From a virus (Duplodnaviria; Caudoviricetes), in the IMG/VR virus record IMGVR_UViG_3300037493_001856, positions 1-62,362 of that record: 62,362 bases of DNA; one strand, given 5' to 3'. The notes under the pieces are model-generated. The model searched no databases. It saw only the letters and a program-made list of their open reading frames with translations, and was not told where the DNA came from. Shown here piece after piece: positions 2,224 to 44,927 of this stretch. Position 1 is the first letter of the stretch, and every line of letters begins with the position of its first letter. A program made the position numbers and the translations under genes.

Positions 2224-2277
2224 TGTTGAATGAAATCAATTACTTAAAGCCGAATATGCCGTGCGAGGAAATCTGAT

Positions 2278-4062
2278 ATGAGCCTACAAGACATCAAGAT
2301 TCAACCGGGCATATATTCTGACGACACGGATCGTGACGTTGGTAAGCTCGGCTATTGGACGGATGGAGACAAGGTCCGGTTCTTCGCCGGGATGCCTACG
2401 AAACTGGGAGGCTGGACACGAGGCGCGGCAGACCCAGCGTTCGTGGGTGTTGCTCGGGGCAGTCTCGATCTGAGAACCACGAGGTCGGAGGTGTTTATCG
2501 CTTTCGGTACTCACCTTAAGTGCTTTGTGTGGGCAGGAGGAGGGTATAACGACGTTACGCCCCTGCGCGCTAGCGGGCAGCTAACCGATCCGTTTTCGAC
2601 TACGGACACCTTAGCGACGGTAAGCGTTGCTGATGTTGCTCACGGGGTACTGGCAGGCGATTACGTGCACTTCGCGAATGCTACGGCGGTTGGCGGAATC
2701 ACCATCAACGGGGAGTACACGGTTACTTCTGTCACGAGTGCAGATGCCTATGCCATTACGCATTCTGCGGTAGCTACTTCGACCGCTGGCCCCGGCGGCG
2801 GCACGGTTGACTATGAGTACGAAATCCCTCCCGGAGGGGCAGACTCCGTCGCAGGGCTCGGCTGGGGCGCAGGCTCTTGGGGCGAAAGTACGTGGGGAAC
2901 ACCGCGTACAGTTACCGATTTCCTGTCGGCAGCGCGCACGTGGCAGTTTGATCAGTGGGGCGAGGATGTCATCTGCAACCCCCGACAGGGAGGCATCTAC
3001 GTCTGGGACTCATCTTCCGGGGTCAATGTTCGCGCCACGTTAATTTCGCAGGCACCGACAACCGCAAAGGGCATTCTCGTTTCTCCCGAAGACAGGCACC
3101 TGATCGCGCTTGGGGCGCACGACGGAGTGGCTGACGACCCTCTGCTTGTTCGCTGGTGTGACCAAGAAAACTATACTGACTGGACGCCTTCGCTCACCAA
3201 CACCGCCGGCGACAAGCGACTGGACACAGGCAACGAGATTCTCTGTGCGGCCAAGGTGCGCGGGGAGCACCTGATCTTTACTGACTCTGCACTGTTTACC
3301 ATGCAGTACGTCGGCCCCCCCGACACGTTCGGATTCAAGACGCTCGGAGATAACGGCAACCTTGTTGGCCCGATGGCTGCACGCGCGTTTGAGGGAATTG
3401 CGTACTGGATGGGGGACAGGGACTTTTTCATCTACGACGGTGTGGCACGAGTGCTCGAATGCTCTGTCAGAGCCCATGTTTTCGACGACTTCAACCGCGT
3501 GCAACGCGCGAAGGTATATTGCGGGGTCAATCGCGATTACCGCGAGGTGTGGTGGCTATACCCGTCCGAAGCCTCCGACGAGTGCGACAGGTACGCGATT
3601 TACAACATGCAGGATAAGCTGTGGGCGTACGGAACAATGGCGAGAACCATGCTGATCGGCGACTCTGACGTGATCAACTACGTTTACGGGTTTGGGGCAG
3701 ACAGTTACTTGTACACACATGAGACGGGCACGGATGACTATTTGACCGCAATGACCGCGTACATCGAGTCGGGAGGTATCGAGCTTGACGCAGGAGGCAA
3801 CGCGATTGCGCATATCAGCAAAATGGTTCCGGACTTCAAGACCCTTGTCGGGTCCGTGGATTTGACGTTTACCGGCAAGAAATACCCGCAGGCGACAGAG
3901 ACGCAGACCAGCGGACCCCATGCAGTTACGTCGTCGACAACATTCGTCAACCCCCGGATGCGCTGCAGACAGATTTCGATCAAAGTATCCAGTGACGGCT
4001 TGGGGGATGACTGGCGATCTGGTATGCTGCGAGTTGACCTTATTCCTCACGGAGGCAGATAA
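2278..4062 (+). CDS. Tail tubular/nozzle (DNA stabilisation) protein
   Basis: W.DGDKVRF...P.KLGGW start, WGEDVI, VRWCDQE, EVWWLYPS; typical podovirus nozzle layout. Confidence 0.7.
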   Translation: MSLQDIKIQPGIYSDDTDRDVGKLGYWTDGDKVRFFAGMPTKLGGWTRGAADPAFVGVARGSLDLRTTRSEVFIAFGTHLKCFVWAGGGYNDVTPLRASGQLTDPFSTTDTLATVSVADVAHGVLAGDYVHFANATAVGGITINGEYTVTSVTSADAYAITHSAVATSTAGPGGGTVDYEYEIPPGGADSVAGLGWGAGSWGESTWGTPRTVTDFLSAARTWQFDQWGEDVICNPRQGGIYVWDSSSGVNVRATLISQAPTTAKGILVSPEDRHLIALGAHDGVADDPLLVRWCDQENYTDWTPSLTNTAGDKRLDTGNEILCAAKVRGEHLIFTDSALFTMQYVGPPDTFGFKTLGDNGNLVGPMAARAFEGIAYWMGDRDFFIYDGVARVLECSVRAHVFDDFNRVQRAKVYCGVNRDYREVWWLYPSEASDECDRYAIYNMQDKLWAYGTMARTMLIGDSDVINYVYGFGADSYLYTHETGTDDYLTAMTAYIESGGIELDAGGNAIAHISKMVPDFKTLVGSVDLTFTGKKYPQATETQTSGPHAVTSSTTFVNPRMRCRQISIKVSSDGLGDDWRSGMLRVDLIPHGGR

Positions 4063-4463
4063 TGAGTCGCCTGCCCGCGCGATTCCCGAACTTCGGAGAT
4101 GTGTTTGACGGCAACGCGATGCGGGCGTTTATCACGCACTTGGAGAATTTGTTCGCGCGAATCGACGTTGATACGACAGGCCCAGCATATCCGGTCACTG
4201 CAGGTGCAACACTGGTGGCAAGCGACGAAGTTGTCTTGGTTGACACAACCGGAGGGAACATCACGATGGTGCTACCGGGAATATCCGACTCTATGGTCAG
4301 GACGAAACGGGAGTTTGAAGTGGTGAAAATTGCGGCTGCGAACACCATGACCCTCGACTGCACCGGGGCGGATACGATTGTTGGCGAGCCCGACGCCGTT
4401 GTAACGGAGCAGTGGACCGCCCTGCGCGTACGCGCGACAACAGGGAATTGGGTGCTGGTATGA
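4062..4463 (+). CDS. Hypothetical virion protein
   Basis: Coupled to the upstream gene (TAATG); DTTGGNIT.VLP tail-like motif. Confidence 0.55.
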   Translation: MSRLPARFPNFGDVFDGNAMRAFITHLENLFARIDVDTTGPAYPVTAGATLVASDEVVLVDTTGGNITMVLPGISDSMVRTKREFEVVKIAAANTMTLDCTGADTIVGEPDAVVTEQWTALRVRATTGNWVLV

Positions 4464-4502
4464 GCACAACTCTTGGACTGAGGATAACTGAGGAGCACCG
4501 GT

Positions 4503-6119
4503 ATGACTGATGCAGAATACTCGGCGGCAAGAGACTATTATCGCCTCGCAGCAACAGGAGCGTCTAATCAGTTTTGGGGCGGTGCAGGGGCACCATACCA
4601 GTACGATTACTACAAAGAGAATGACCCAAACACAACAGCCGATGATGTGCTCACGGGAATGGGGGAGCATGACGAGAGTGCGAGGTATACATGGGCAGGG
4701 TACAACAGCCCGCAATACGTTGCTGCACTAAATAAAGCTGCCGCAGAAAGAACAGCGCTAGATAATGCAAGACTAGCAAGCCCCGGGGCTATTGGGGCGG
4801 CGTTGTCCCGACCTGACTTGGTTGGGCTGAATAGTCTTGGAATGAGTGGTGCTGAGTTGGCGTTTTACGATCCGGCTACCCTTGCGAATAACGGCATTAG
4901 GCTAACAGCGCAACAGCAGGCCGCGAGAGATTCGCAGATTGCCAATAGCACCCCTGCTGCACAAGACGATGGAGACGGTGGTTTTGGTCCGCTGCAGCTC
5001 GCCATGCTTGCCCTCGCGATTTATTCAGGTGGTGCTTCTGCCGGATTGTGGGGCGCGGCTGAAGGTATAGGCGCAGGAGCAGCAGGAGCGTTCGACACCT
5101 TTGCAACGACTGACTTGGTAAACGCTGGCTGGAACTCAGTTACGGGATACGGGCTCAGTGCTCCCTATTCGGGTGGATTTGTAAATAACGTGATTGACGC
5201 ATTGGGAAGCCAGTTCACCCCAGAAAAGATAGGGATGAATTTCTTGACGCAGGCGGGGGGGGATGCTTTCGGTGACCTCGCTGCAGGCCGGGACATCGAC
5301 ATAGACTTTGGTCGTGCCGGAACCGGTATGATTACCGGCGGGATCGGCGGTGCGATGGGTTCTGCGGGTACTGATTTCTTCGGTGATGTTGGAATGCCGT
5401 CGTGGGCCGCGAGACCTCTTGGTGGAGCCTTTGGGCAGCTTTCCGGGGCAGTGCTCAACGGGGCAGACTTGGAGACAGCCGGGGCGAACGCTTTGATTGG
5501 CGGGGCTAGCGGGGCAATCGGTGGCGGTGTCGGTTCGCTAGACCTTGGAGGGCAAGGGTCGTTCTTGGATCAGATCAGCCCGACTGTGGCCAAAGAGCTT
5601 TCGAGCATCGTGATGCGCGGCGGAGATGCTGAAGCAGTGAAGAACGCGCTGATTGCATCGGGAGTTAACCTTGGCACGTCTGCGGCAATGCAGCAGGTCG
5701 ACAAACTGTACGCGGAACTCAAGAATTATGTTACGGACGGCGAGTCTTCAGGTGTATCGAAAGCAGCTGATTGGCTGTACGGGCAAGGCAGGGGCATGGT
5801 GGGGCAGGAGCTTGCTACGAACGCGTATGGGGAGCTTGTAGATGGGGCTACGCCGCTGCACCAGACGCCCCAACGAACTGCACAGCAACGAACTGCACAG
5901 CAACGAACTGCACAGCAGTTGGCGCAGGGAAACCGAGGTTACGGCCAGAACATGCAGAATGCCGCGCGGCTGGCGCGAGGAGGTAACCCGTACTCGTTCG
6001 GGTACGACGCAGAAGCGCAAGACGAAGAAGAATCCGCCGCTCCGCCGGGAGCCCTTGATCCGGCAATGGAAGCAATGCTGGCAGAACTTGAACTTCCCGT
6101 AGAATACGGGTATGTGTAA
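4503..6119 (+). CDS. Gly/Ala-rich putative ejection (internal virion) protein
   Basis: Glycine-zipper-like segments; follows the nozzle gene. Confidence 0.5.
   Translation: MTDAEYSAARDYYRLAATGASNQFWGGAGAPYQYDYYKENDPNTTADDVLTGMGEHDESARYTWAGYNSPQYVAALNKAAAERTALDNARLASPGAIGAALSRPDLVGLNSLGMSGAELAFYDPATLANNGIRLTAQQQAARDSQIANSTPAAQDDGDGGFGPLQLAMLALAIYSGGASAGLWGAAEGIGAGAAGAFDTFATTDLVNAGWNSVTGYGLSAPYSGGFVNNVIDALGSQFTPEKIGMNFLTQAGGDAFGDLAAGRDIDIDFGRAGTGMITGGIGGAMGSAGTDFFGDVGMPSWAARPLGGAFGQLSGAVLNGADLETAGANALIGGASGAIGGGVGSLDLGGQGSFLDQISPTVAKELSSIVMRGGDAEAVKNALIASGVNLGTSAAMQQVDKLYAELKNYVTDGESSGVSKAADWLYGQGRGMVGQELATNAYGELVDGATPLHQTPQRTAQQRTAQQRTAQQLAQGNRGYGQNMQNAARLARGGNPYSFGYDAEAQDEEESAAPPGALDPAMEAMLAELELPVEYGYV
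5871..5915 (+). repeat. In-frame tandem repeat CAACGAACTGCACAG x3 (QRTAQ)
   Basis: Read directly from the sequence. Confidence 0.9.
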
Positions 6120-6130
6120 GGAGAACTGAG

Positions 6131-7309
6131 ATGGACGAAGCGACCGCAGAATGGTTACGAGAGCAAGGAATAGACCCGTATTTTACAGGGGAGACCGCTC
6201 TTGATACGTCATCAAACACATGGGGAGAGATTGCAGGTTTAGACCCTTCCGCAAACGACGCGTATCAGCTGTTGTTGGACGAAGGATTTATACCAAATGC
6301 AGACAACAACGCGCTGCCTGACCCTGCCAATTTCGTGTACAACGACTTAATATCAGGTCTCAGCGCAGCAGACATTGCAAAGATAGTAGGGTCTCCGGCA
6401 CTAAAAGCTGCGCTTGAAGCAGCGTCTTCAGCATCGAAAAGTAAGACGTTGTTGGACACGCTTAAATCGTCGACAGGGCTTTCTAGCGCTGCACTCGGAC
6501 TCGGCGGCACAGGACTTCTTGCTACGCTCGCTGCGCTCACCAGCAAACCATCGACTACGTCTGGCAACACGACGCAGGTCAGCAGCACAGGGCAGACAAC
6601 CGCAGGTACTACAGGGCAGACAACCGCAGGAACCAGCGGGCAGACGCAGAAAGTAGGCTTCGACCAGTGGTACGAGGACATGGTCAAGGCACAGGCGGAA
6701 GGTATTCCGACGAAGGGCTACGAGTCATTTGACAAGGACATGCTCAACCTGCCGAACAACCGTGCCATCGCGGACTACATGAGTCCGTACATGGAGCAGG
6801 TGGCGAATCCGATCATGCGTCGGCAGGCTGAAGATCAAGCCGCTCAGTCGCAGAAGTTCGCGGCAGAACGCGTGTCGCGCGGAGCGTTTGGTTCCGGGCG
6901 TGCGGACATACTCTCCAACCAGATGCAGGAGCGGCAAGCCCTTGAACGGGATAACACTCTCAGCGGCATCTACAACCAAGCATTCGGCAGTGCCACGGGG
7001 CTGGCGCAGAACGACCTTAGCCGCTCCTTCGATGACTGGAAGTTGCTGCAAGCAGGCGGGACAGGAACAGTCGGACAGGCAACGGCGCAAGGTAATCTGC
7101 TCAAAGGCTTGGCTCCGGGAGCTACGACGACGGTTGCTGGTACGACGGCAGGAACCACAGCGGGCACCACAGCGGGCACTACGACGGGCACCACGGGTCA
7201 GACCGGCACGACGAGCTACACCGGGGCAGACCCGAGCCGCCTTGGCCAGCTGGCAGGCATTTCTGGCACTATCTGGGGCATGGCCAACCCGAACGGACTT
7301 AAACCATAA
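6131..7309 (+). CDS. Putative DNA-transfer/ejection protein
   Basis: YMSPYMEQV and GAFGSGRA motifs typical of podovirus pilot/ejection proteins; T/G-rich repeats. Confidence 0.6.
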   Translation: MDEATAEWLREQGIDPYFTGETALDTSSNTWGEIAGLDPSANDAYQLLLDEGFIPNADNNALPDPANFVYNDLISGLSAADIAKIVGSPALKAALEAASSASKSKTLLDTLKSSTGLSSAALGLGGTGLLATLAALTSKPSTTSGNTTQVSSTGQTTAGTTGQTTAGTSGQTQKVGFDQWYEDMVKAQAEGIPTKGYESFDKDMLNLPNNRAIADYMSPYMEQVANPIMRRQAEDQAAQSQKFAAERVSRGAFGSGRADILSNQMQERQALERDNTLSGIYNQAFGSATGLAQNDLSRSFDDWKLLQAGGTGTVGQATAQGNLLKGLAPGATTTVAGTTAGTTAGTTAGTTTGTTGQTGTTSYTGADPSRLGQLAGISGTIWGMANPNGLKP

Positions 7310-20239: not shown

Positions 20240-21205
20240 CTAGATCAGCCCGTCCAACATCGCTTCAAGGTCTTCACCCATCGGCTCCGCTGCCACCGGT
20301 TCCGGCTTGGGCTCAGGCTTCGGCTCGGCCTTCTTCGGCGCGGGCTTGGGCTTGACCACTTCAGCAACAGGCTCGGCAGTCGGGGCAGGAGCGGCCAGCA
20401 CATGTGCAGGGGCCGGCGTCGAGAACCCGTCGTCATCCTCCATGCTCACCTCACCGGACAGGTCCACCGTCGTCGCCGTAACCTCCAGCATGGACTTCAC
20501 TTCCGCCGACTTGGCGAGCTTGGCCACAACTGCGAACTCGTCTTCCGGGATGAACGACTGCGGCGTGAAGTACAGCTTCGGCACTGACGACGCTGTGTCG
20601 AACGACAAGCGAGTCACCAGACCTTCCGCACGAACACCACGGGCAGCGAGGAACTTGGCGTAGCCAGACAAGGTGTACAGGCCCTTCGCATCGACGCCAT
20701 CGCCGAACAACGACAGGGCCTTCACATCCAGCTGATAGACCTCACGCTCAGGATCACCAGACAGCATGACCGCCAGCCGCTTGCTGAAGGCACACGCCCG
20801 GGCCTTGCGTCCCTCGAACACCTTGGAGCCCTTCTCGTTCTGCGGGCAGGTGGCGCACTTCGACGACTGCGGTTCAGCGGAGTCCTTTGCAGGACTGATA
20901 CCGTCCACCGAGAAACAAGCCGGCGGGGCTTTGACTGACGGGTCGTACGTGCCGGCGTAGAACGTACGGTTGATCGCGACGTTGGCACCGAGGATGATCA
21001 CGTCGAGGTACGGCTCGTCCTTGACAGCGATTTCCTGTCCGGCTTGCACCAGACGGAACCGGGCACCCTTGAGGCCGATGCGGTTGCGCCCAGAGCCCAT
21101 CCCGCCGCCGATCTGCGACGTGACGGAATCCGCTGTGGCTCGGAGGTATGCGGGTACTGCGACGGCAGCGCCGCTGTTAAACAGTGCTACGAGATTCGTG
21201 GTCAT
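20240..21205 (-). CDS. Putative ssDNA-binding/annealing protein
   Basis: P.CFS.DG..P, C.TCPQN.KGS, AC...KRLAV; acidic tail; in the replication module. Confidence 0.6.
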   Translation of the reverse strand: MTTNLVALFNSGAAVAVPAYLRATADSVTSQIGGGMGSGRNRIGLKGARFRLVQAGQEIAVKDEPYLDVIILGANVAINRTFYAGTYDPSVKAPPACFSVDGISPAKDSAEPQSSKCATCPQNEKGSKVFEGRKARACAFSKRLAVMLSGDPEREVYQLDVKALSLFGDGVDAKGLYTLSGYAKFLAARGVRAEGLVTRLSFDTASSVPKLYFTPQSFIPEDEFAVVAKLAKSAEVKSMLEVTATTVDLSGEVSMEDDDGFSTPAPAHVLAAPAPTAEPVAEVVKPKPAPKKAEPKPEPKPEPVAAEPMGEDLEAMLDGLI

Positions 21206-30181: not shown

Positions 30182-31107
30182 GTCTTGCTCCTTTCGATTT
30201 CGTCAATCAAGCGGCGAAGCTCTAGTTCAACCGCAGTACTTGTGTGTTCCGATCCACGCCCTGTAAAACGAGCAGCCGCCTCACGCAGTACCTCCACCTT
30301 CGCTTGCCGGAGTTGGTCGGCGATTGCAGCTAAATCCGATTGACGCACCGACAGAAGATTCTCGTGTTGCTGTCGCCACTCGTTACGATCGTTGGTCATA
30401 GCTTCAAGTTTCTTGGCGTAGGCCATCATTCCTTTGCCCGCGCCTTCAATCTCTCCGCAGTGCCTACATGCCGGCCTCATGTCTGATCCTTTCCACTGTT
30501 TGATTGCGGCGAGGGTTTCGGTAACTGCAATATCCAGAGAGCTACTCGGCCACATGTTCATTACCTTTTGAGTGTCTGCAAGAACGTCCTCTGCCTTCTC
30601 CAACAGGGCGCAGAGTTCGAGGATGGTGTCGCCGTAACCGTTAAGCGCATCAGCATACCGTTCCCGCTCCTGCGCCAGCCGATCCATCAGCGCGGAGTCG
30701 TCGGTTGGGTGGGCGAGTGCCTTCTTCGCTACACACCCACCGCAGTCGGTGTATCCATCCCCTCCTCGGCCACACCAACCTTCGCAGTATTGATCTTCGT
30801 AGTATTGCAGCGCCTCCCGCAGCTTCGCCTCCTGTGCTTGAGCGGCTTGCAATTCGCGCAGGTAGTGATCACGCTCGTCGAGCGCCTTGTGCGTGAGTTC
30901 GTCGGCTTGTGCGGCGGCGAGTTGTTCGCGCAGTTCAATAATTACACCGGAAGCATGTAACAAGTTCGCTTCATCCTCAGCAACCTGAGCGCGTAGGGCT
31001 TCGATGTCGTCAGGCTCATGGCCTGCTTGCCAGTTGTGGTTCATTTCATGTATCTCCCGTTGTGTCAGCGCATCCAACGTCATCGTCATTTCAGCGAGTT
31101 GGCCCAT
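30178..31107 (-). CDS. Mosaic coiled-coil hypothetical protein (probable two-gene fusion)
   Basis: Contains a gene-junction module with a 1-nt insertion near 30491. Confidence 0.55.
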   Translation of the reverse strand: MGQLAEMTMTLDALTQREIHEMNHNWQAGHEPDDIEALRAQVAEDEANLLHASGVIIELREQLAAAQADELTHKALDERDHYLRELQAAQAQEAKLREALQYYEDQYCEGWCGRGGDGYTDCGGCVAKKALAHPTDDSALMDRLAQERERYADALNGYGDTILELCALLEKAEDVLADTQKVMNMWPSSSLDIAVTETLAAIKQWKGSDMRPACRHCGEIEGAGKGMMAYAKKLEAMTNDRNEWRQQHENLLSVRQSDLAAIADQLRQAKVEVLREAAARFTGRGSEHTSTAVELELRRLIDEIERSKT

Positions 31108-31292
31108 CGCAGCTCATCAGACCGTGACCACGCTCTGGGAAGAAGAGCTTGCGTCACGGCGGCGAGTTGTTCTCGGTAGTGATCAGCCTCGTTGATCCAT
31201 CCATCCCGCTCCTGTGTCAGCCCAGCAACCTTCTCACGCAGGGCTTCGATTTCTGTTTGCAGTTCTTGCGGTGATTTGTTTAGGTCACTCAT
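31086..31292 (-). CDS. Hypothetical protein
   Basis: RBS AAGGAG; IEALR and REQLAA shared with the downstream ORF. Confidence 0.5.
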   Translation of the reverse strand: MSDLNKSPQELQTEIEALREKVAGLTQERDGWINEADHYREQLAAVTQALLPRAWSRSDELRWANSLK

Positions 31293-31327
31293 CGGGTTCT
31301 CCTTGTAAGGCTTCCTTCGTTCTCCGT

Positions 31328-31455
31328 GTCTAACTTGCCAGTTCATTTCACTCTCCTTTGATTGTCCGGTATTCGACAGGATGTTTGGCTTCAACGGGTT
31401 ACCGCCGCGTGATGGAATGTTTTGCGTCTTTTAGGGGGTCTACTTAGCGTTATGC
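31328..31455 (+). mobile_element. Degenerate att-like site 1 (array boundary; long attC-like or attI-like)
   Basis: GTCTAAC at 31328 and GGTCTAC-ttagc-GTTATGC ending 31455; no good internal stem. Confidence 0.5.
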
Positions 31456-31707
31456 CCCTTCGGGTACGGCAACCGTGTTGTGCGGGCACCGATCAAGGCA
31501 AACCAACCGCCGAAGCTCAACCACATCACCCTCCTTTTCGCCGTAGCGTTTCCATGCCGTTGTCGATAGCGGCCCGAACAGCACGGCTCCGATCATCTCC
31601 CCCGCTTCGTAGAGCGCAAACGCCATGCTCACCTTGCAGCCGTTGATGCTCTTGCTGTAGTGGTGTTCCTCAATGAATGGCCGCACTACCGCAACCGCCA
31701 CGGGCAT
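31450..31707 (-). pseudogene. Cassette 1: N-terminal fragment of a Mom-like (GNAT) DNA-modification protein
   Basis: FIEEHHYS...IGAVLFG...VELRRLVC.D.CPHNT then early stop in the att core; no clear RBS. Confidence 0.55.
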
Positions 31708-31779
31708 AACACGGCGGTCAACACGGACGCCTGCCGGCGATAAAGCCGCCGTCATGCGCCGGTTACCTCAGCGTTAGCC
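31704..31779 (+). mobile_element. attC site 2
   Basis: GCATAAC..GGT[C]AAC[A]CGG[A]CGC / GCGCCGGTTACC..GTTAGCC. Confidence 0.9.
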
Positions 31780-31780
31780 G

Positions 31781-32002
31781 TCACCATGACATCGTGTCGC
31801 GCAGGGTGGAAATCTTCACGTTGTAAAGGCCTGTAGCCTTCATTTCTTCCATCGCGTTTTCCAACATCGCCAGCCGTTCCTTCTGCTCGGCAATCTTGCG
31901 CTCCAAGTTCTCGCCGCACGTCATCTGCTGCATCGGGTCTTTGTCTTTGCAGTAGCCAAGGGTATTCCCTGCCGGCATCATCACTTGGTTTCCTTCGTAC
32001 AT
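31781..32002 (-). CDS. Cassette 2: coiled-coil hypothetical protein
   Basis: RBS AAGGA; fills the cassette. Confidence 0.65.
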   Translation of the reverse strand: MYEGNQVMMPAGNTLGYCKDKDPMQQMTCGENLERKIAEQKERLAMLENAMEEMKATGLYNVKISTLRDTMSW

Positions 32003-32044
32003 GGTCATTCCTTTATTCAGTTGCCGTGGTTTACGTGGGCGCAC

Positions 32045-32111
32045 GGCTAACCCGTCGTTCCAGCGGAGCTACGCAATAAGGCCGCTTGCGCCGGTTATTT
32101 CTGCGTTAGCC
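32045..32111 (+). mobile_element. attC site 3 (hybrid, mismatched arms)
   Basis: GGCTAAC..TTCCAGCGGAGCTACGC / GCGCCGGTTATT..GTTAGCC. Confidence 0.75.
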
Positions 32112-32112
32112 G

Positions 32113-32370
32113 TCACAGTTGCGTGTATCCGCTCTCGAAAGCGCCTGCCGGTGAAAACGACTTGTAGCCGTCCTCATAGACCACGTAGTAGCCGCCGACT
32201 TCGGGCTTGTGTTTTGCCACGTATTCCGGCGACAGCGGCACTTTGTCGTAGCCTTCTTCGGCGGGCTGGAAATACACACCACCGTGCTGGTCGCCAACAA
32301 TCCCGGCAATCTTCAAAGCCCACACTTTCTTGTGGCATTCGTACTTCGGCATTTCGCGGCTTGCGTTCAT
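32113..32370 (-). CDS. Cassette 3: phage protein with YYVVYEDGYKSFSP..FE.GY motif
   Basis: RBS GAGGA; motif resembles the domain often fused N-terminally to DUF2829. Confidence 0.65.
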   Translation of the reverse strand: MNASREMPKYECHKKVWALKIAGIVGDQHGGVYFQPAEEGYDKVPLSPEYVAKHKPEVGGYYVVYEDGYKSFSPAGAFESGYTQL

Positions 32371-32409
32371 GTTTCTGTCCTCAAAAACCGTGGCTTCATC
32401 GGGCGTCAC

Positions 32410-32467
32410 GGCTAACCCGTCAATCAACCCGGACGGCTTTCAGCCGCCGGTTAGCTCTACGTTAGGC
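32410..32467 (+). mobile_element. attC site 4
   Basis: GGCTAAC..T[C]AAC[C]CGG[A]CGGC / GCCGCCGGTTAG..GTTAGGC. Confidence 0.9.
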
Positions 32468-32991
32468 CCCATGCCGAGTAGTGCTGTTAACTTTATCGGA
32501 GCGCAATTCGCCCCGTTCGCTTGCACTCCGTTCAACCTTGGGCGCAGGCAGTGGATATAAAGCGACTCCAACCTGTCCAGAGCATCAACAGAGCACGGAA
32601 CGAACGCATAGCGGTCAAACCGCTTTCCTGTGTGCTGTCCAATCCGAGAGTAGACATTCACGGCCTGCCCGACGTAAACAACCTCGTCCCCGTCGAGCAA
32701 GAAATACACCCCACTTGCCTTCGCCCACGGCAAGGCCGCTTTCGCTATTTCGTCCTCTCTCAGAAGCGCCGATCCAACCACAGCAGCAGAAACGGAGTGC
32801 ATTGTTTCCATGCGTTGCAGCGCGTCTAGCCTTTCTTCCAGTTCGGCTATCTGGCGGTGCAGTCCGCCAGCGTATTTGAGCGCATCTTGTCTTGCCGCAT
32901 CTTCAGCATCACGTCTTGCTCGGCGCGTAGCGTGGGCCTTTGCAGCAATCGCCTTGCGTTCTTCTGGCGTCTTGTTTTGCATCGGGTTCAT
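32440..32991 (-). CDS. Cassette 4: GIY-YIG-domain protein
   Basis: SGVYFL...VVYVGQA...SRI..H...LE..YI...P.LN; RBS GGAGG; C-terminus reads into attC 4 (PNVELTGG). Confidence 0.75.
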   Translation of the reverse strand: MNPMQNKTPEERKAIAAKAHATRRARRDAEDAARQDALKYAGGLHRQIAELEERLDALQRMETMHSVSAAVVGSALLREDEIAKAALPWAKASGVYFLLDGDEVVYVGQAVNVYSRIGQHTGKRFDRYAFVPCSVDALDRLESLYIHCLRPRLNGVQANGANCAPIKLTALLGMGPNVELTGG

Positions 32992-33003
32992 TTTTCCTCC
33001 AGT

Positions 33004-33060
33004 GCCTAACCCGGCAGTCCAGCGGACGCCGTGCCGGCGCCGCTGACTTTTGCGTTAGGC
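33004..33060 (+). mobile_element. attC site 5
   Basis: GCCTAAC..AGTC[C]AGCGG[A]CGCCG / CGGCGCCGCTGACT..GTTAGGC. Confidence 0.92.
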
Positions 33061-33327
33061 ACACCACCCGCAACAACCGAATGACAGCCCTGCCTCAAGC
33101 TGTCCGGCAATGATCGAGTATTCAGCCTCGTTGATTCCGTATTTCTCCAGCACTTCTGGTTTCGGCGGAACGCGAGTAAATTGCATGTCACCGCAAGCGT
33201 AGTACTCTGCGTTTTCGGCGTCCCTGTCGTATTTCTCTCCAAAGTCTTCGCTGTCGGCGTCAATGTCGTTAATCGTGAAAGTCGGCGTGTAACACAGTGC
33301 CGATCCAAATTCGAGTTCGAGTTTCAT
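33055..33327 (-). CDS. Cassette 5: acidic Cys-containing hypothetical protein
   Basis: RBS AGGAG; ends GCCGWCA with its stop inside the att core. Confidence 0.7.
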   Translation of the reverse strand: MKLELEFGSALCYTPTFTINDIDADSEDFGEKYDRDAENAEYYACGDMQFTRVPPKPEVLEKYGINEAEYSIIAGQLEAGLSFGCCGWCA

Positions 33328-33341
33328 GCTCTCTCCTGTGT

Positions 33342-33404
33342 GCCTAACATTTGCGTCAACGCGGACGCTTCGCAAGCTACGCGCCGGTTACGCCAGCGTT
33401 AGGA
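33342..33404 (+). mobile_element. attC site 6
   Basis: GCCTAAC..GCGT[C]AAC[G]CGG[A]CGC / GCGCCGGTTACGC..GTTAGGA. Confidence 0.9.
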
Positions 33405-33605
33405 ACCGCGCCGCACATCGGCCAGCGCCTTCGATAAATCCATGCTTGCCCGTTTCGCTGCCGCGCAGTGCTGCCCGCCGCAATAGTAGGGGTCTCCCTT
33501 GGCGTATTCAGTGCTTCCAGCGCACCGCTTCACAACGTCTGCCACTGCCAAAAACCTCTTGGCTTCGGCAACGGCTTTGTCCAGCGTCTTTACTCTAATG
33601 CTCAT
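33399..33605 (-). CDS. Cassette 6: small helical hypothetical protein
   Basis: AVAEAKRFL...AAAKRASMDLS.ALA..R; stop inside the att core. Confidence 0.7.
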   Translation of the reverse strand: MSIRVKTLDKAVAEAKRFLAVADVVKRCAGSTEYAKGDPYYCGGQHCAAAKRASMDLSKALADVRRGS

Positions 33606-33611
33606 GTCGTT

Positions 33612-33667
33612 TCCTAACCCTTCATTCAACCCGGACGCCTTCGGCGCCGGTTAATTCCACGTTAGAC
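33612..33667 (+). mobile_element. attC site 7
   Basis: TCCTAAC..ATT[C]AAC[C]CGG[A]CGCC-ttc-GGCGCCGGTTAAT..GTTAGAC. Confidence 0.92.
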
Positions 33668-33835
33668 ATCTATGAACACGACCCACTTCGGTTCTGACGC
33701 GGGCTTACGGTAGTGCGTTGCCTGCACATCTTCGGCATCATTCCAGTCGCCAGCCTCGTTGCGCACTTCAACCCTCGCATCCCCGTAGTCGGCGCGCATC
33801 TTCTCCAGCTTGGCGATCAATTCGTTTATGGTCAT
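33662..33835 (-). CDS. Hypothetical protein flanking the array
   Basis: MTINELIAKLE...YGD; stop TAA lies in the GTTAGAC core. Confidence 0.6.
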   Translation of the reverse strand: MTINELIAKLEKMRADYGDARVEVRNEAGDWNDAEDVQATHYRKPASEPKWVVFIDV

Positions 33836-33837
33836 CT

Positions 33838-33996
33838 TCAAATCTCCACAGGGTAGTCTGCCAGCCACGCCAGCCGCGCCCACTCATCACGATGCCGAGC
33901 GAGATAGGCTACATGGTCAGGGTTACGTCCGGTGTTCCGTGCGAAATCGCAGTCCCACCTTGTCAGCCAGTGCATGACACGGTAGAAGTGTTTCAT
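33838..33996 (-). CDS. Hypothetical protein
   Basis: Coupled small ORF with purine-rich RBS. Confidence 0.5.
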   Translation of the reverse strand: MKHFYRVMHWLTRWDCDFARNTGRNPDHVAYLARHRDEWARLAWLADYPVEI

Positions 33997-34235
33997 TTCC
34001 TTCCCTCCTTCACGGCGAGATACTTCCAATACGCTCGGCCCTGCGTTCCCATGATGTAGGTGCACTCGTCAGCGGTGCTGTACACAGGCGTCATGCCCAT
34101 CACCTTGGCGCAGACCTTGGGTGCTTGTGTGGAGCGTTCTTCCCCTATCCATAGCCCTGAGACGAAACAGGCAATAGACCAGCAGAGAAAAAACACGATG
34201 ACATCGGGGTAGAAGGCTTTACGGTTTGGGTTCAT
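33993..34235 (-). CDS. Small membrane protein
   Basis: One hydrophobic segment; ATGA coupling. Confidence 0.55.
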   Translation of the reverse strand: MNPNRKAFYPDVIVFFLCWSIACFVSGLWIGEERSTQAPKVCAKVMGMTPVYSTADECTYIMGTQGRAYWKYLAVKEGRK

Positions 34236-34441
34236 CCCCGCACCCACAACTCACGCCTAGCAGCGATAAACCCAGCGTTTTTAAGTTGCGCCGCTGTTAC
34301 GGTAGGCCGAGGGGTTTTCTTGGTGTGTCCCGGCAGGACGAACTCATCTTGATTATGGTACGACGGGACGATGGTTAAGTTGCCCTTTACATAAACGGTG
34401 CAAGGGGCTGTCGGGGCTTCGTTAAAGTCTGCTGCTTTCAT
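34232..34441 (-). CDS. Hypothetical protein
   Basis: ATGA coupling. Confidence 0.55.
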   Translation of the reverse strand: MKAADFNEAPTAPCTVYVKGNLTIVPSYHNQDEFVLPGHTKKTPRPTVTAAQLKNAGFIAARRELWVRG

Positions 34442-34614
34442 TTCGTTTTCCTTTCGATTGGTTTGTCATTAACCTTCTTTGCCATTGCAAGCCTGTGGTG
34501 CTCGGGGCAGAGAACCCCTCCGCCGTTGCTGTACTGCCCGATGCGGTGGCATCGCTTACCTGATTGCGTCTTGGCAGTGCATTGCATCCGGTCTTGTTCG
34601 TAGGAGTGATTCAT
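34438..34614 (-). CDS. Small Cys/His zinc-finger-like protein
   Basis: CTAKT.SGKRC...C.EH. Confidence 0.55.
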   Translation of the reverse strand: MNHSYEQDRMQCTAKTQSGKRCHRIGQYSNGGGVLCPEHHRLAMAKKVNDKPIERKTK

Positions 34615-34808
34615 ACACACCCCTTCCGCAAGAGACTCTCCCTCATGTACTGGAGCTTGGCCTGCATGTTGTGCAGTTCATCTTCAGCATATTGTCTCTC
34701 AACCCTTGCCCCCGCCTCACGGCGACGTTGCCTTGCGACGAACAGCTTGTATGAATCCACGGCTTGCGAGTACGCGATGATCTCTGCTTGCTCTTGTGGG
34801 ATGGTCAT
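34611..34808 (-). CDS. Hypothetical protein
   Basis: Coupled ORF. Confidence 0.5.
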   Translation of the reverse strand: MTIPQEQAEIIAYSQAVDSYKLFVARQRRREAGARVERQYAEDELHNMQAKLQYMRESLLRKGCV

Positions 34809-35008
34809 TTCCTGCTCTCCCATTCCCTGTCGTACTCGCGCTCACGCGCCAGATCGTTCTCGTAGTCAGCCTTGGCACACTGGTTCTCGTACCAATCCTC
34901 ACCATCGGACTCAACACCCGTACCCCGGCAAGATGAGCATCGAGAACCATCGTACATACCCTCGCCTGAACCGTTGCAGGTGGGGCAGAGTGGTTCGTCG
35001 TCGGTCAT
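34805..35008 (-). CDS. DnaJ-type zinc-finger small protein
   Basis: CPTCNGSG...CSSCRGTG. Confidence 0.7.
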   Translation of the reverse strand: MTDDEPLCPTCNGSGEGMYDGSRCSSCRGTGVESDGEDWYENQCAKADYENDLAREREYDREWESRK

Positions 35009-37694: not shown

Positions 37695-38351
37695 TCACAG
37701 CTTGATGTTGTCGCCGAACGGACACTCGTCGGCGGTTGTTACGGTGATGTGCGGAGCCACCCGCTCCTCGAACACCCCTTTCTTGACCCACTTGTTTATC
37801 GTTGATGGGCAAACCCCTGCGAGCCGCGCCCATCCTGTAAGGTGATGTGTTGTACCTTGCACTGTCAGCCAGCGGTTCTGCCGCGGGTTTGCCCCTTGCT
37901 CGAGCGGTGTAGCCCACCGACAGTTGTCGGGTGAGTACGGGCCGTTGTTGTCCCGCCGGTCAAGCGACTTCCCTTCCGGCTTGAGCCCCATGTCACCCAA
38001 GAAGTTGGAGAACGTCCGCCACCTGTCACACACGGTAATCCCGCGACCTCCATACTTTGGGTATGCCTTGTCGTTCGGGTTCGTACAGCGTTGAGTCATC
38101 GCCTTCCAGATGCGATGCTCCGGCGTATTGCAAGCCCCGTGGACAATCTGGTGGTATGGCTCAAACCCTACGTACTGCCCACACCCACAGGACTTGGTGT
38201 TCCCAGACCGGAGCCGCCCTGTGGTGACGACAGTGACCTGCCCACAATCACAGGCGCACTCCCACGCAACGTTCCGCCCTTCGTGCACCCCTTGGCGGGT
38301 CACAACCAGCCGCCCAAACCGCCGACCGATCAAACACTTTTTCGCAGGCAT
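37695..38351 (-). CDS. HNH homing endonuclease
   Basis: GRRFGRL.V, C.CDCG, KSCGC, W..M..RC, YGGRGI.VC.RW, SLDR.DNNG.YSP.NCRWAT. Confidence 0.85.
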   Translation of the reverse strand: MPAKKCLIGRRFGRLVVTRQGVHEGRNVAWECACDCGQVTVVTTGRLRSGNTKSCGCGQYVGFEPYHQIVHGACNTPEHRIWKAMTQRCTNPNDKAYPKYGGRGITVCDRWRTFSNFLGDMGLKPEGKSLDRRDNNGPYSPDNCRWATPLEQGANPRQNRWLTVQGTTHHLTGWARLAGVCPSTINKWVKKGVFEERVAPHITVTTADECPFGDNIKL

Positions 38352-39463
38352 TAGTCCATCCTTATAACGTCCCCCCACGGAGGTATGACATCGGTCGTGA
38401 GGCACCATATCACCGGAAACTCAGGCGGCTCGGGGTCGTAGGGGGTTTCGCCGTCCGAGAGCCATATCATAACAACAGGTAGTGTATCACACTCACCGGC
38501 GAGCTTTGTAGCTGGCCTCAAGTCCGTACCACCACCCCCATGTACGTCAGCCTTGAGCTTCTCGCCATCTGCGTAATGGTCGACCGCCGTCACGCGCGCA
38601 TCGCACTGGATCACGGTCACGCACTCGGGCTTGCACTCGTCGCATATCGACTGGACCTCGTCGAGAAACTCTCCGACGCGGGCGACGATACTTCCGCTTG
38701 TGTCGATACCCACCACCACGCGCCCCATGCCGGGGTTGTGCAGAGCCGGCAGGTACATGCCCTGTGCCAAGAACCTGCGCTGCCCACGGTTCCACGACTG
38801 GTCGTTCTTCAAGACCTGAGTCATGTACCGGCGCAACTCCTCCCGCCAGTCGACCTTGGGTGCGAGTGCCTGCTCGACCAGACCTGCGAGAGACGCGGGG
38901 AGTGCCCCTTGAGCTTTGGCTTGGTTCGCGGCTTGCGTTATGCGTACCTTCGCCTCCGCCTCGGACTGCTGCCTCTCCTGCTCGTTACCGGGGGCGTCCA
39001 TGCAGTCATCGAACTGGTCGCCGTCACCTTGACCTGAACCTTGGCCGTCGTCGGGCGGCGGGTCGGGGAGCTTGTTATAGATTTCCTCGAACGCCTGCCC
39101 CTTGTACTGCGTACCATCGAGCCCCTCGGGCGGGAGCGAGAACCCTGCCTCGGCGATGATCGGATTGATCGCCAAGTCCATCGCTTGATTCGCCTTCTTG
39201 TGATTGCGCGAGCCCTTCCGCCACGGGTGCAGCATGGCAACGTGCATGACCTCGTGCACAAGAACTCCGCAGACTTCCTCAACAGACCATCGCGTGATCG
39301 CGTCGGGGTGGACGAACACAGACTTGCCGTTGGTAGCGGCAGTCGGCGGCTTGAGGCTAGCGTCTATCTTCAGGTCCATGCCCAGCAGGACAGATGCGAA
39401 GAACGGTGACCTCATGACCACGCGGGTCCGGGCCTTGGCCAGCTTGTCGTTAACGATGCTCAT
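38351..39463 (-). CDS. DUF2201 metallopeptidase + VWA-like protein
   Basis: TAATNG, HEVMH, DTSGS (MIDAS), GGGGTD, SDG. Confidence 0.85.
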   Translation of the reverse strand: MSIVNDKLAKARTRVVMRSPFFASVLLGMDLKIDASLKPPTAATNGKSVFVHPDAITRWSVEEVCGVLVHEVMHVAMLHPWRKGSRNHKKANQAMDLAINPIIAEAGFSLPPEGLDGTQYKGQAFEEIYNKLPDPPPDDGQGSGQGDGDQFDDCMDAPGNEQERQQSEAEAKVRITQAANQAKAQGALPASLAGLVEQALAPKVDWREELRRYMTQVLKNDQSWNRGQRRFLAQGMYLPALHNPGMGRVVVGIDTSGSIVARVGEFLDEVQSICDECKPECVTVIQCDARVTAVDHYADGEKLKADVHGGGGTDLRPATKLAGECDTLPVVMIWLSDGETPYDPEPPEFPVIWCLTTDVIPPWGDVIRMD

Positions 39464-43385: not shown

Positions 43386-43688
43386 GATGTCTTTTCCTTT
43401 AAGTAAGTTCTGCATAACGTTATGCAGTGACTACATTATAACACGCTTTCCCCCATATGCGGAGGATTCGAGCTTTGTGAGAATCTCACAGCAAGGCTTG
43501 AGAGAATCTGGCGAGCGACCCATGCCGGGGGGCCGGGGGGCAAATCGTTTTCGTGGTGTGGGAGGGGGCGCGCCACTCCCACGATCACTAAAAAACGAGA
43601 GGGGGGAGTGGGGGCTATCAAAAATCACTTGATTTTAAGGTGTTCTTCGCGTAAAGTCCTACCTACACGCACACCCCGGAGAGTCGCC

Positions 43689-44927
43689 ATGTTAGGAAAA
43701 CGATTTGGAAAACTTGTAGTTTTGGAGAAGCTCAGGTCTCACCCTCAGATAAAGAAAGACGGGTACTACCGTTGCCGCTGTGACTGCGGCACCATTTGTG
43801 AGGCCCGAGCGACCTCGTTACGCAAAGGGCACAAGCGGTCATGTGGCTGTCTCGCTGCGATTGCACAATCGTCGCCGTGGGTAGGCCGCGCCGTCGGTCA
43901 GCTCACGGTAGTGGAAAAACTTGAGGGTAAGCGCTACCGTTGTGTGTGCGCTTGCGGGAGAGAAATCGTGTCAACCAGCATGTGGAGTCGCAACAAGACC
44001 GCCGAGGCGGGAGGGGAGGTTAACTGCCGTGGTCCGGCTCACAGTATTGTGAGGGGGCCAAAGATACCTAAACCTAGAGGGTGTGCCAGCAAGCATGAGC
44101 TGTACAGCGTGTGGCGAGGGATAATGACGAGGTGTCTGAATGTATCGTCGCCCGCCTACCCTGTGTATGGCGGGCGAGGTATCACAATTTGCTCTGATTG
44201 GGCGAACGATTTTTGGGCTTTTGCGGTATACGTAGACAGCGTGCTTGGTGTGAGGCCGTCGTCTGGCCACTCGATTGATAGGGTAAATAACAATTCAGGG
44301 TATGAACCTGAAAATATCCGCTGGGCGACGAGCCTAGAACAAGGCCGAAACACTAGGAATTGTCGCCCGTTTCGGTATAAAGGTGTTTTGTGGCCTGCTC
44401 ATACAGCCGCATTTGACGCGTGGGTTGCTGACGGGCGACCGGATTGTTGGGAGTTTCGTACAGCTAGTATGTCAAGGCGACTTAATGGTCAGCTGTCCGC
44501 AAAAGAGAGGGGGGAAGCTAGAGAGGCAGCTGATGCCCTCTCTATGGTGCTACACAAAGAAAAACAGATAGCACGCGGTGTAGAAAAGCAGGCACAGCGA
44601 AAAGCTCGTCTGGATAAGTTGTTGCGTCCCGCGAAAGTGTTAGGCGACGTGCTGCGGTTGAGGGGGTTGGTGGCTGTAACGCTGGCCGATGTGGATGTGT
44701 TGGTGACGTTGTGCTTGAATCGAGGAGTTGCCCCTACGCGGCACTATCAGATAACCAGCTTACAGATAGCAGCTAGGGCCGCAGCACGTATGCCGCATAT
44801 GTTCTCTGTAGATTCGTCCGGAGACTGGTGTAGGGAAGTACGCCTATTGTCTCACCCTCATGCCGTCGAGCCTGCACTTTCGTCGGTGACCTGCACTTTC
44901 GTCGGTGACCTGCACTTTCGTCGGTGA
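43689..44927 (+). CDS. HNH homing endonuclease with C-terminal extension
   Basis: GKRFGKL.V, CRCDCG, RSCGC, YGGRGI.IC, SIDR.NN...YEP.NIRWAT. Confidence 0.75.
   Translation: MLGKRFGKLVVLEKLRSHPQIKKDGYYRCRCDCGTICEARATSLRKGHKRSCGCLAAIAQSSPWVGRAVGQLTVVEKLEGKRYRCVCACGREIVSTSMWSRNKTAEAGGEVNCRGPAHSIVRGPKIPKPRGCASKHELYSVWRGIMTRCLNVSSPAYPVYGGRGITICSDWANDFWAFAVYVDSVLGVRPSSGHSIDRVNNNSGYEPENIRWATSLEQGRNTRNCRPFRYKGVLWPAHTAAFDAWVADGRPDCWEFRTASMSRRLNGQLSAKERGEAREAADALSMVLHKEKQIARGVEKQAQRKARLDKLLRPAKVLGDVLRLRGLVAVTLADVDVLVTLCLNRGVAPTRHYQITSLQIAARAAARMPHMFSVDSSGDWCREVRLLSHPHAVEPALSSVTCTFVGDLHFRR

Follow-up and report, generated by a model that had tools for sequence, protein, structure and literature searches.

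The phage genome analysed here (a record of 62,362 bp, referred to as the window) carries at 31449-33668 an array of six attC sites, s2-s7, together with a terminal site, s1. It is an integrase-less cassette array of the integron type (CALIN), the cassettes of which were probably inserted singly, with crossover at G|TT in the R' core; the enzyme would be the integron integrase (IntI) of a host, acting in trans. The record represents a whole phage genome, with direct terminal repeats at its ends, and the array lies in the minus-strand early/replication operon of a complete and probably virulent 62-kb phage.

Six sites with attC architecture

In each of the six sites s2-s7 an inverse core R'' (RYYYAAC) and a core R' (GTTRRRY) are present at the ends, and in the alignment all six form an imperfect hairpin with a left arm of 17-18 nt and a right arm of 15 nt. 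Extra (extrahelical) bases, the source of strand polarity in an attC, occur on the R''/L'' arm, at places matching attC_aadA1 of plasmid R100. A covariance model (R1) was built from the six phage sites alone. In 50 kb of R100 it matched once only, at attC_aadA1 and on the strand that is sense for aadA1 (40.7 bits, E 1.6e-6). In both of the bacterial contigs that hold attCs as well as intI, R1 matches attCs located downstream of and divergent from intI, and IntI scored above the cut-off in all five bacterial genomes with the same attC type. Four further matches were found in the examined region of MW202573, one of the phage records for which PMC9892861 reports a CALIN, where the correspondence with the accessible part of the publication is at the level of the record. 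The site s4 has one weak match among phage records, also in MW202573, and none among plasmid records. Judged from sequence and predicted fold, s2-s7 are attC sites. Within the window R1 gives only these six at E<=10; a loose attC pattern, tried for additional sites, was uninformative (38 matches, 31 expected).

No intI was found beside the array, as the integron integrase profile TIGR02249 has no match across the entire 62,362-bp record and the tyrosine recombinase profile PF00589 has none in the five phage records searched. There are thus six co-oriented attC sites, where at least two are needed for a CALIN, and no integrase on the replicon; the array is classed as a CALIN because it resides on a whole phage genome without a tyrosine recombinase. 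CALINs in phages are a kind already described, according to the accessible part of PMC9892861.

Table 1. Coordinates of the terminal site, the cassettes and the flanking genes, with the score of each attC site against the attC model.
Feature	Position	Strand	Contents	attC site	attC score (bits)
Left flank backbone gene	31086..31292	-	coiled-coil protein		
s1, terminal site	31326..31455	+	R' crossover G at 31449; R''-like TGTCTAAC at 31327-31334		
c1	31450..31773	gene on minus	ORF 31450-31755, internally deleted Mom-like	s2, 31704-31779	63.1
c2	31774..32105	gene on minus	ORF 31781-32008, 75 aa, no family	s3, 32045-32111	53.1
c3	32106..32461	gene on minus	ORF 32113-32370, 85 aa, phrog_11049	s4, 32410-32467	76.1
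c4	32462..33054	gene on minus	ORF 32440-32991, 183 aa, weak GIY-YIG match	s5, 33004-33060	73.3
c5	33055..33398	gene on minus	ORF 33055-33327, 90 aa, no family	s6, 33342-33404	60.8
c6	33399..33661	gene on minus	ORF 33399-33605, 68 aa	s7, 33612-33667	68.8
Right flank backbone gene	33662..33835	-	57 aa, phrog_6992		

The c1 ORF matches positions 4-85 of 202 of Pfam PF25680 and also phrog_1384, and a full-length Mom cassette of 212 aa in two other loci (L360/L361) shares its left end with c1. The c3 protein has an OB fold like that of phage L Dec, and in the Atlas it falls in viral hypothetical clusters only. The final 22 nt of the c4 ORF cross the cassette boundary into s4, and the stop codon of the right flank gene is the TTA of the last R' (GTTAGAC). 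If the left flank gene began at another in-frame start, at 31346, it would extend over the R''-like core; a homologue of this gene adjoins the terminal motif in L002. A search through the 309-aa flank gene led to a single relative, again L002, in which the contig end cuts the array. Many genes of the window are without family assignment.

Core pairing between neighbouring sites

The seven R' cores and the R'' cores are located exactly where the initial annotation had placed them, and its principal claim, that the R' of each site complements the R'' of the next, was reproduced for every pair listed there (7-11 nt). Counted as a contiguous run from the G of GTT, this complementarity extends over 9 nt between s1 R' and s2 R'', 9 nt for s2/s3, 9 nt for s3/s4, 7 nt for s4/s5, 11 nt for s5/s6 and 8 nt for s6/s7. 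Within sites, the runs are 4 nt (s2), 9 nt (s3), 5 nt (s4), 9 nt (s5), 6 nt (s6) and 5 nt (s7), which agrees with the further claim that the ends of sites 2, 4, 6 and 7 mismatch past the conserved GTTAG. An additional pair, absent from that annotation, is formed by the last R' and TGTCTAAC, which are complementary over 8 nt. With this match included, the next-site total is 61, the highest attainable, as opposed to a permutation mean of 39.6. This total was equalled in 2 of 5040 permutations of the R'' partners, and that of the six listed pairs alone in 2 of 720; in both sets, the other permutation that reaches the maximum differs only by exchanging s2 and s3, whose R' cores are identical. Next-site pairing is likewise seen in other viral loci, where runs of at least 8 nt occur in 81 of 163 adjacent pairs as opposed to 14 of 163 within a site and 4.4% of random pairs, and in bacterial arrays, where they occur in 69 of 115 adjacent pairs and in 6 of 115 within a site.

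It had also been stated that circularising a cassette restores R''/R' complementarity. For an in-silico circle, the bottom strand of every site was folded together with the bases that open its cassette. Energies dropped at four sites, from -24.0 to -29.4 kcal/mol at s2, from -14.0 to -19.6 at s4, from -13.8 to -20.9 at s6 and from -10.5 to -16.4 at s7; s3 did not change, and s5 became slightly weaker (-25.3 to -22.9 kcal/mol). The cassettes have their limits at the R' G|TT. Each one starts with bases that pair with the R'' of its own attC because, on the reading preferred here, it would have been inserted by crossover at this position.

Movement of cassettes among phages

The initial annotation had suggested a search for the same cassettes in other phages or integrons, and had raised the possibility that homologues always have the same neighbours and limits unrelated to the cores. 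The latter does not hold, as homologues of c1-c6 occur with different neighbours and with limits at the core G|TT. As for where they occur, homologues were found in other viral contigs, next to new neighbours, while a tblastn search with c1-c6 and both flank genes gave no match in a small sample of 80 bacterial attC loci. For c3, the G|TT limits were read by a regex script, in the output of which the rows for L009 and L015 appear spurious. The script recognised the left limit in the window and in 14 of 18 close loci, adjoined by 12 different left neighbours, and the right limit in the window and in 12 of the 18, adjoined by 11 different right neighbours. A c3 homologue in L019-L021 has a different pair of ends, which are again mutually complementary.

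Homologues of c1, c2, c4, c5 and c6 also break at G|TT in other contexts. Those of c2 occur in L115-L121, and in both L115 and L116 the homology begins at the junction G|TT 31772/31773. The c4 homology in L086 covers 32461-33044 (95.5%) and breaks at G|TT; that of c5 begins at 33054 (L084) and 33052 (L085), and that of c6 at 33397 in L113, with a break at G|TT 33398. A blastn search of phage records with 31000-34000 found only 76 nt of the c3 gene, in nine Ralstonia phage records. Arrays are carried by different phage backbones of 37-62 kb, and the attC type is present in at least 118 IMG/VR stretches. On this comparative evidence, in which one cassette has at least 11 different neighbours and breaks fall at G|TT, cassettes have been exchanged among phages.

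Other metagenomic contigs carry other sequences at the same G|TT junctions. Run X1, possibly the source sample, contains 95% of the words; one of its contigs follows the window as far as 31452 and then diverges for 255 letters. In X1 and X3, the right flank from 33660 on is joined to attCs other than s7, and in X2 an identical foreign continuation follows both 31451 and 31775; these junctions were read from contigs rather than reads, and the sides of the joints are short (21-29 letters). The depths in X1 (103 and 81 for junction contigs as opposed to 26.5 for the array contig) are a hint only, because they are depths per contig. In X2, X3 and X5 parts of the window have no cover, and these parts were left out of account. 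Joints that lead back from 32434-32439 to 32088-32090 (X3, X5), around c3, were considered as circular cassettes and were not counted, because another cassette's attC followed by c3 fits them equally well.

Inverted polarity of the cassettes

The attC top strand is the plus strand and all six cassette genes are on the minus strand, with each attC on the 5' side of its gene; the canonical layout, with the gene on the top strand and the attC 3' of it, is found in none of the six cassettes. Elsewhere, R1 matches lie opposite to the strand of the homologous gene in 65 of 65 and 18 of 18 cases (two sets), and in MW202573 all four are opposite to the depositors' CDSs. It is the attC on the 5' side that travels with the gene, and the site on the 3' side varies. 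In contigs picked by one attC pattern, with the strand called by ORF length and a composition score, 130 cassette segments of viral loci comprised 5 canonical, 44 inverted and 81 undecided, whereas the 116 segments of bacterial loci comprised 44 canonical, 15 inverted and 57 undecided (Fisher p 7e-12). Inverted cassettes and inverted arrays are known in sedentary chromosomal integrons, where the inverted cassettes are usually toxin-antitoxin cassettes.

In the phage array, the bottom strand, which is the recombinogenic one, coincides with the coding (non-template) strand. This polarity would allow the phage operon to read the cassette genes. It would also set the bottom strand on the strand that is most often single-stranded, exposed as the non-template strand and, if forks move with transcription, as the lagging-strand template as well, which may favour recombination within one infection cycle.

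The terminal site

In top-strand sense, the array begins at a recurrent terminal site, a putative entry site that occupies the place of attI. The right half of s1 resembles the L'-spacer-R' of an attC (GGTCTAC, TTAGC, GTTATGC); it has an R', with an R''-like core only at a distance, it folds poorly and it has no match to R1 at E<=10. No recognisable attI or Pc was found at the phage array. The motif GTCTAC, 5 nt, GTT is shared by 17 non-redundant arrays, in which it lies on the 5' side of the first cassette, with a density of 0.122 per kb as opposed to 0.014 per kb on the opposite strand, and occurs on several phage backbones; a dedicated site is therefore suggested, rather than random secondary sites. 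It was considered whether s1 might be a long resident attC that the last R' closes, and this reading was rejected, the 8-nt complement being present in 1 of the 17 arrays, that of the window (control rate 0.7%). Because of this single occurrence, the match between the last R' and TGTCTAAC, which lies upstream of the terminal site, may be due to chance. The antisense genes relative to the attC top strand, the completeness of the phage genome and its lack of an integrase, the non-standard attC character of s1 and the recurrent terminal motif all go beyond the initial annotation.

Recombinase and alternative explanations

In the proposed mechanism, the six cassettes, each consisting of one small gene and one attC, would have been inserted one at a time by a tyrosine recombinase, with the crossover at G|TT in each R' core. 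The enzyme would be the host's integron integrase, acting in trans on the folded bottom strand, and the intermediates would be circular cassettes, a passage proposed by analogy with integron biology. As judged from the occurrence of the attC type, the host is likely to belong to the Betaproteobacteria and to have a chromosomal integron with attCs of this type.

Cassettes could instead be moved by a phage-encoded recombinase of an unrecognised family, an explanation that we consider improbable. It would account for arrays being widespread in phages that encode no integrase and for a phage cassette pool that looks separate from the sampled bacterial pool and is inverted, and the many window genes without a family would leave room for such an enzyme. 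However, the sites retain all of the features read by IntI (cores, L boxes and bulged bases of the bottom strand), the cassette limits are those of IntI, and IntI1 has recombined attCs of virulent phages, as reported in the accessible part of PMC9892861. In addition, no shared candidate gene was noticed on the differing 37-62 kb backbones that bear arrays, in a search that was not systematic.

It is quite improbable that the sites are conserved intergenic linkers, such as RNA structures, terminators or REP-like repeats, between which genes are swapped by homologous recombination in the repeats. Blocks of 20-30 nt are common to the sites (families D1-D4), the sites lie in the mRNA between genes with minus-strand stop codons overlapping the GTTAG cores, and s2 and s3 share 90% identity across 30 nt of their right halves, which suggests that homologous exchange or conversion between sites may occur as well. 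Homologous exchange would nevertheless leave the rule that joins R'(n) to R''(n+1) unexplained, and breaks fall at one dinucleotide step, G|TT, rather than anywhere in the shared blocks. The sites also score as attC against real integrons, while none of the three terminator-like matches in 30500-35000 is within a site (5.0 expected by chance) and Rfam gave no match in this interval at E<=1. Promoter-like matches were likewise absent from 30500-35000. The view taken in the initial annotation, that these are recombination sites rather than terminator-like hairpins, is supported by the attC model matches, the G|TT breaks and the lack of a terminator in any site.

It is hardly credible that mis-assembly or binning attached the integron DNA of a bacterium to a phage contig, which could explain why X1 contigs break at both array ends (31446-31451 and 33660). 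The array contains genes of phages (Mom, phrog_11049, phrog_1384), which run in the same direction as the phage operon around them; the arrangement recurs in many viral contigs, some with terminal repeats; and cassette homologues are absent from the 80 bacterial attC loci.

With host IntI as the inferred recombinase, a wider model may be put forward tentatively, as a possibility that we hold to be short of probable. Phages of Betaproteobacteria in freshwater, sediment and wastewater might possess their own integrase-less platform, with a dedicated terminal site and an inverted cassette pool that is shuffled among unrelated backbones by borrowed host IntI, the polarity being selected for placement on the non-template, and likely lagging-template, strand. 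If this is true, the arrays would recombine fast enough to matter in the lytic cycle, and the phage operon would express their cargo, for example DNA modification of the Mom type.

Significance and comparison with known systems

Integrons are commonly viewed as bacterial devices. If host IntI drives the shuffling, phages would be exploiting a stress-induced bacterial recombinase to diversify accessory genes, some of them perhaps used in counter-defence. The polarity makes the arrays a natural experiment on whether the strand bearing the attC bottom strand sets recombination rates, and they are a large and readily enumerated source of small phage genes. A few CALINs have been reported in phages; the present arrays show a consistent non-canonical polarity and a recurrent putative entry site.

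In the accessible part of PMC9892861 (2023), 10,705 NCBI phage genomes were screened and 17 CALINs found, IntI1 was shown to recombine five of six tested attCs from virulent phages, and the TJE1 and PH101 arrays are described as having a typical bacterial structure. Those CALINs are like the present array in that they consist of attC arrays with small cassettes and without intI, and virulent phages are included among their carriers. They differ in that antisense genes, a terminal site and phage-shared cassettes, all seen in the present arrays, have no mention in that part of the source.

Class 1 integrons (attC_aadA1 of R100) and the chromosomal integrons of Betaproteobacteria have the same attC architecture, G|TT limits and R'(n)/R''(n+1) signature as the phage array. 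The phage array differs from them in lacking intI, in having the gene on the bottom-strand side with the attC at its 5' end and in carrying cargo of phage families. Antisense cassettes also occur in bacterial arrays, where they make up 15 of 59 decided segments and so a minority, whereas in these phages inversion is the rule for whole arrays. In sedentary chromosomal integrons, inverted cassettes use their own promoter, as opposed to the phage arrays, where expression would come from the phage operon. Placement of the bottom strand on the lagging-strand template favours folding and excision, as stated in the accessible part of Richard et al. (2024; PMC13108822). Cassettes also insert outside att sites, according to the part of bioRxiv 10.1101/2022.09.11.507474 that is accessible, and in this way the first cassette of an array might enter a phage genome at a non-attC site like s1.

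Organization of the array and pairing of its cores

The phage genome (62,362 bp, with direct terminal repeats and a CheckV completeness of 100%) encodes a terminase, a portal protein, tail fibre proteins and virion proteins and, on the minus strand at ~17-42 kb, a primase/helicase, a helicase, an exonuclease, a family A DNA polymerase, a nucleotide kinase and HNH endonucleases. The array lies within this minus-strand operon, with small early genes on one side and replication genes on the other, and the flanking genes have PHROG matches. The transition from the early to the structural module has an HNH endonuclease gene on each side. In the interval 30800-34400, six attC sites (s2 to s7) of 56-76 nt, each with a left R'' core (nnCTAAC or ATAAC) and a right R' core (GTTAG), follow a terminal site, s1. 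The genes of the cassettes (c1 to c6) are encoded on the minus strand, opposite the attC top strand, and each attC is therefore 5' of its gene; the GTTAG core often holds the stop codon of the preceding minus-strand gene.

Coordinates, strands and assignments of the array and related features
Feature	Position	Strand	Elements or match
Upstream core	31327-31334		R''-like, TGTCTAAC
s1	31449	plus	R' GTTATGCCC, preceded by attC-like right half only
s2	31704-31779	plus	R''/R' cores
s3	32045-32111	plus	R''/R' cores
s4	32410-32467	plus	R''/R' cores
s5	33004-33060	plus	R''/R' cores
s6	33342-33404	plus	R''/R' cores
s7	33612-33667	plus	R''/R' cores
Last R'	33661-33668		GTTAGACA
c1 gene	31450-31755	minus	Mom family (PF25680, phrog_1384)
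c3 gene	32113-32370	minus	phrog_11049
c4 gene		minus	weak GIY-YIG match
HNH gene	37695-38408	minus	phrog_374
HNH gene	43608-44927	plus	phrog_374

The initial annotation had described each R' as pairing with the R'' of the next site, and this was confirmed from s1 to s7 by complementary runs of 9, 9, 9, 7, 11 and 8 nt in order, the best possible score, which 2 of 5040 permutations reach. Within the same site the runs (s2 to s7) were 4, 9, 5, 9, 6 and 5 nt, the short ones falling at s2, s4, s6 and s7, where mismatched ends had been noted. The pattern extends further: runs of at least 8 nt occurred in 81 next-site versus 14 within-site comparisons for 163 pairs of adjacent sites from other viral loci, and in 69 versus 6 for 115 bacterial pairs. 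In the in-silico circularisation that the initial annotation proposed, rebuilding the attC with its own cassette's first bases improved the bottom-strand fold by 5-7 kcal/mol in four sites, left s3 unchanged and made s5 slightly worse. Site s3 itself looks chimeric, its left half and inner CCGCTTG resembling the s5 type and its last 30 nt sharing 90% identity with the right end of s2 (31755-31784), a mosaic that points to conversion or to exchange among sites.

On their plus strands, the phage sites can be aligned with attC_aadA1 of plasmid R100 (the sequence after aadA1, read on the aadA1 sense strand), including two extra left-arm bases. A covariance model trained on the six phage sites alone, and searched against the window, 50 kb of R100 and one related contig locus (L002), recovered the six sites and no further attC in the window; in R100 its one match was exactly attC_aadA1, on the gene-sense strand (40.7 bits, E 1.6e-6). 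IntI was found above the curated cut-off in five of five bacterial genomes with this attC type, and on two contigs with both intI and model matches the latter lie downstream of, and divergent from, intI, as in canonical integrons. The model also matched four sites in the region examined of phage record MW202573, for which Qi et al. (PMC9892861) report a CALIN, an array of attC sites on a replicon without integrase. Together these results identify the plus strand as the top strand of the attC sites.

Cassette genes

The c1 gene is Mom-like and carries a frameshift and an internal deletion (~380 nt, as estimated from lengths) bounded by two copies of an 8-nt repeat, with both cassette ends intact; two related loci (L360 and L361) hold a 212-aa Mom gene with the cassette start and attC type of c1. 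Some cassette ORFs extend past G|TT, the crossover point, and into the adjacent site (that of c4 over 22 nt, 32440-32461; the full-length Mom gene in L360 at ~2100-2125), so that their last residues depend on the neighbour. For the c3 protein an OB-fold domain is predicted (pLDDT 86), and just one clear match emerged in structural comparison, to the decoration protein Dec of phage L (6e3c; Foldseek E 2.9e-4, 31% identity; phmmer E 0.12).

Cassette mobility and its probable mechanism

A search for c3 homologues in IMG/VR gave 147 stretches, from which 80 loci were kept. The 18 close loci (92-98% protein identity) share DNA homology with the window only over ~32104-32470, spanning G|TTAGCCGTCA, the gene and an s4-like attC up to the next G|TT, with both sides unrelated. 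By a scripted count, the left neighbours fall into 12 distinct sequences and the right neighbours into 11; the regular expression used made one spurious call on each side (L009 left, L015 right). The attC is truncated in L008 and L015, and four loci lack it. Across c3 loci the 5'-side attC is conserved with the gene and the 3'-side site varies (57-123 nt), which independently places the crossover at the plus-strand R' end; in three loci (L019-L021) a c3 homologue has different ends, GTTAGGCAAC and GTTGCCTAAC, which are mutually complementary. The same pattern was observed for c4 (L086), c5 (L084, L085), c6 (L113) and c2 (L115, L116). Constant neighbours and limits unrelated to the cores had been named as the outcome contrary to movement; varied neighbours and limits at G|TT were found instead and, with the single-step breakpoints and end complementarity, support the initial view that these units moved by site-specific recombination. 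Distant c3 homologues (44-62% identity; L023-L083, and GP4-like Ralstonia phages, records H1-H9) are mostly without attC, with model matches in 3 of 61 loci, and on this comparison the family may have started out as an ordinary gene of phages, with one branch later becoming a cassette.

Contigs from four public metagenome runs were compared with positions 30200-34800. Run X1, with 95% of the words, may come from the source sample; its contigs stop at 31446-31451 and 33660; one matches to 31452 and continues with 255 unlike letters, and another consists of an attC left half (to 32067), 38 other letters and the right flank at 33660. One X3 contig runs from the left half of a c3-type attC (to 32435) into this flank. 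X2 has an identical foreign continuation after both 31451 and 31775, and one of its contigs is homologous to s1 from 31329 onward, within the R''-like core. For X5, a wastewater run, 436 contigs matched the region, and summed contig depth peaks over c3. These joints show that other junction partners exist and, having short sides (21-29 letters) and coming from contigs, speak to the existence of partners and not to frequencies.

The best-supported reading is IntI-type recombination at G|TT on folded bottom strands, in which the host would supply the recombinase and cassettes would pass through circular intermediates. This reading fits the cassette limits, the site anatomy and the lack of a phage recombinase, neither the integron integrase model TIGR02249 nor the tyrosine recombinase family PF00589 having a match in the window. 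Homologous exchange within shared repeats accounts for neither the single-step breakpoints nor the end complementarity, though the similarity of s2 and s3 suggests that it adds noise. That a phage recombinase of an unrecognised kind moves the cassettes is improbable. Mis-assembly is unlikely because the cargo consists of phage genes and the layout recurs.

Inverted polarity and the terminal site

In the homologue loci every model match is antisense to the homologous gene (65 of 65 matches in one set, 18 of 18 in another), and in MW202573 the depositors' CDSs lie on the strand opposite to all four matches. For a like-for-like comparison, one attC pattern was scanned in bacterial genomes (at least 120 stretches) and IMG/VR (at least 118 stretches), attCs were located by the covariance model, and the coding strand between them was called by ORF length and a G1-C1 + A2-T2 composition score. 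With both criteria agreeing, the 130 viral segments comprised 5 canonical, 44 inverted and 81 undecided, versus 44, 15 and 57 of the 116 bacterial segments (Fisher p 7e-12 for segments where the criteria agree; the calls are crude, composition having favoured the listed ORF in 23 of 29 window ORFs of at least 250 aa). Among the matches listed, bacterial contigs with the pattern were mostly Betaproteobacteria MAGs (Gallionellaceae, Burkholderiales, Rhodocyclales, Nitrosomonadales). A Propionivibrio MAG contig (L128) has an array of mostly inverted cassettes at 1421-7041, which may be phage-derived, and intI of that genome is on another contig. A 37-kb phage with terminal repeats (G004, the record behind L010) has two attC arrays on opposite strands, at ~20326-20873 and 32049-33408.

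The hypothesis that inversion reflects strand exposure is motivated by the published association of increased excision with bottom strands that lie on the lagging-strand template (PMC13108822). It depends on the direction of the phage fork, on which GC skew is no guide here, since the skew tracks transcription.

Read along the top strand, the array opens with s1, whose right half (GGTCTAC, TTAGC, GTT) is like an attC L'-spacer-R'. A motif of this type also lies 5' of the first cassette in L014, L018, L113, L116, L002 and L360, and has this position in 17 non-redundant arrays overall. Its density is 0.122 per kb, as against 0.014 per kb for the reverse orientation, and a small hairpin lies immediately upstream of some copies. 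Over 8 nt, the final R' of the array in the window is complementary to the upstream core, which lies 115 nt to the left of the terminal crossover; such a closure was not found in the other 16 arrays.

Comparison with known integrons

By its position at the array start, the s1-type motif is a candidate for the role that attI holds in integrons. Phage CALINs, including those of virulent phages, have been published (PMC9892861), so this kind of array is known. In the full-text literature searched, where no paper combined attC, integron and IMG VR, and in the consulted part of PMC9892861, which makes no mention of inversion, three features were not found in print: the consistently antisense arrangement of the genes, the terminal motif that recurs between arrays, and cassettes shared by different phage backbones.
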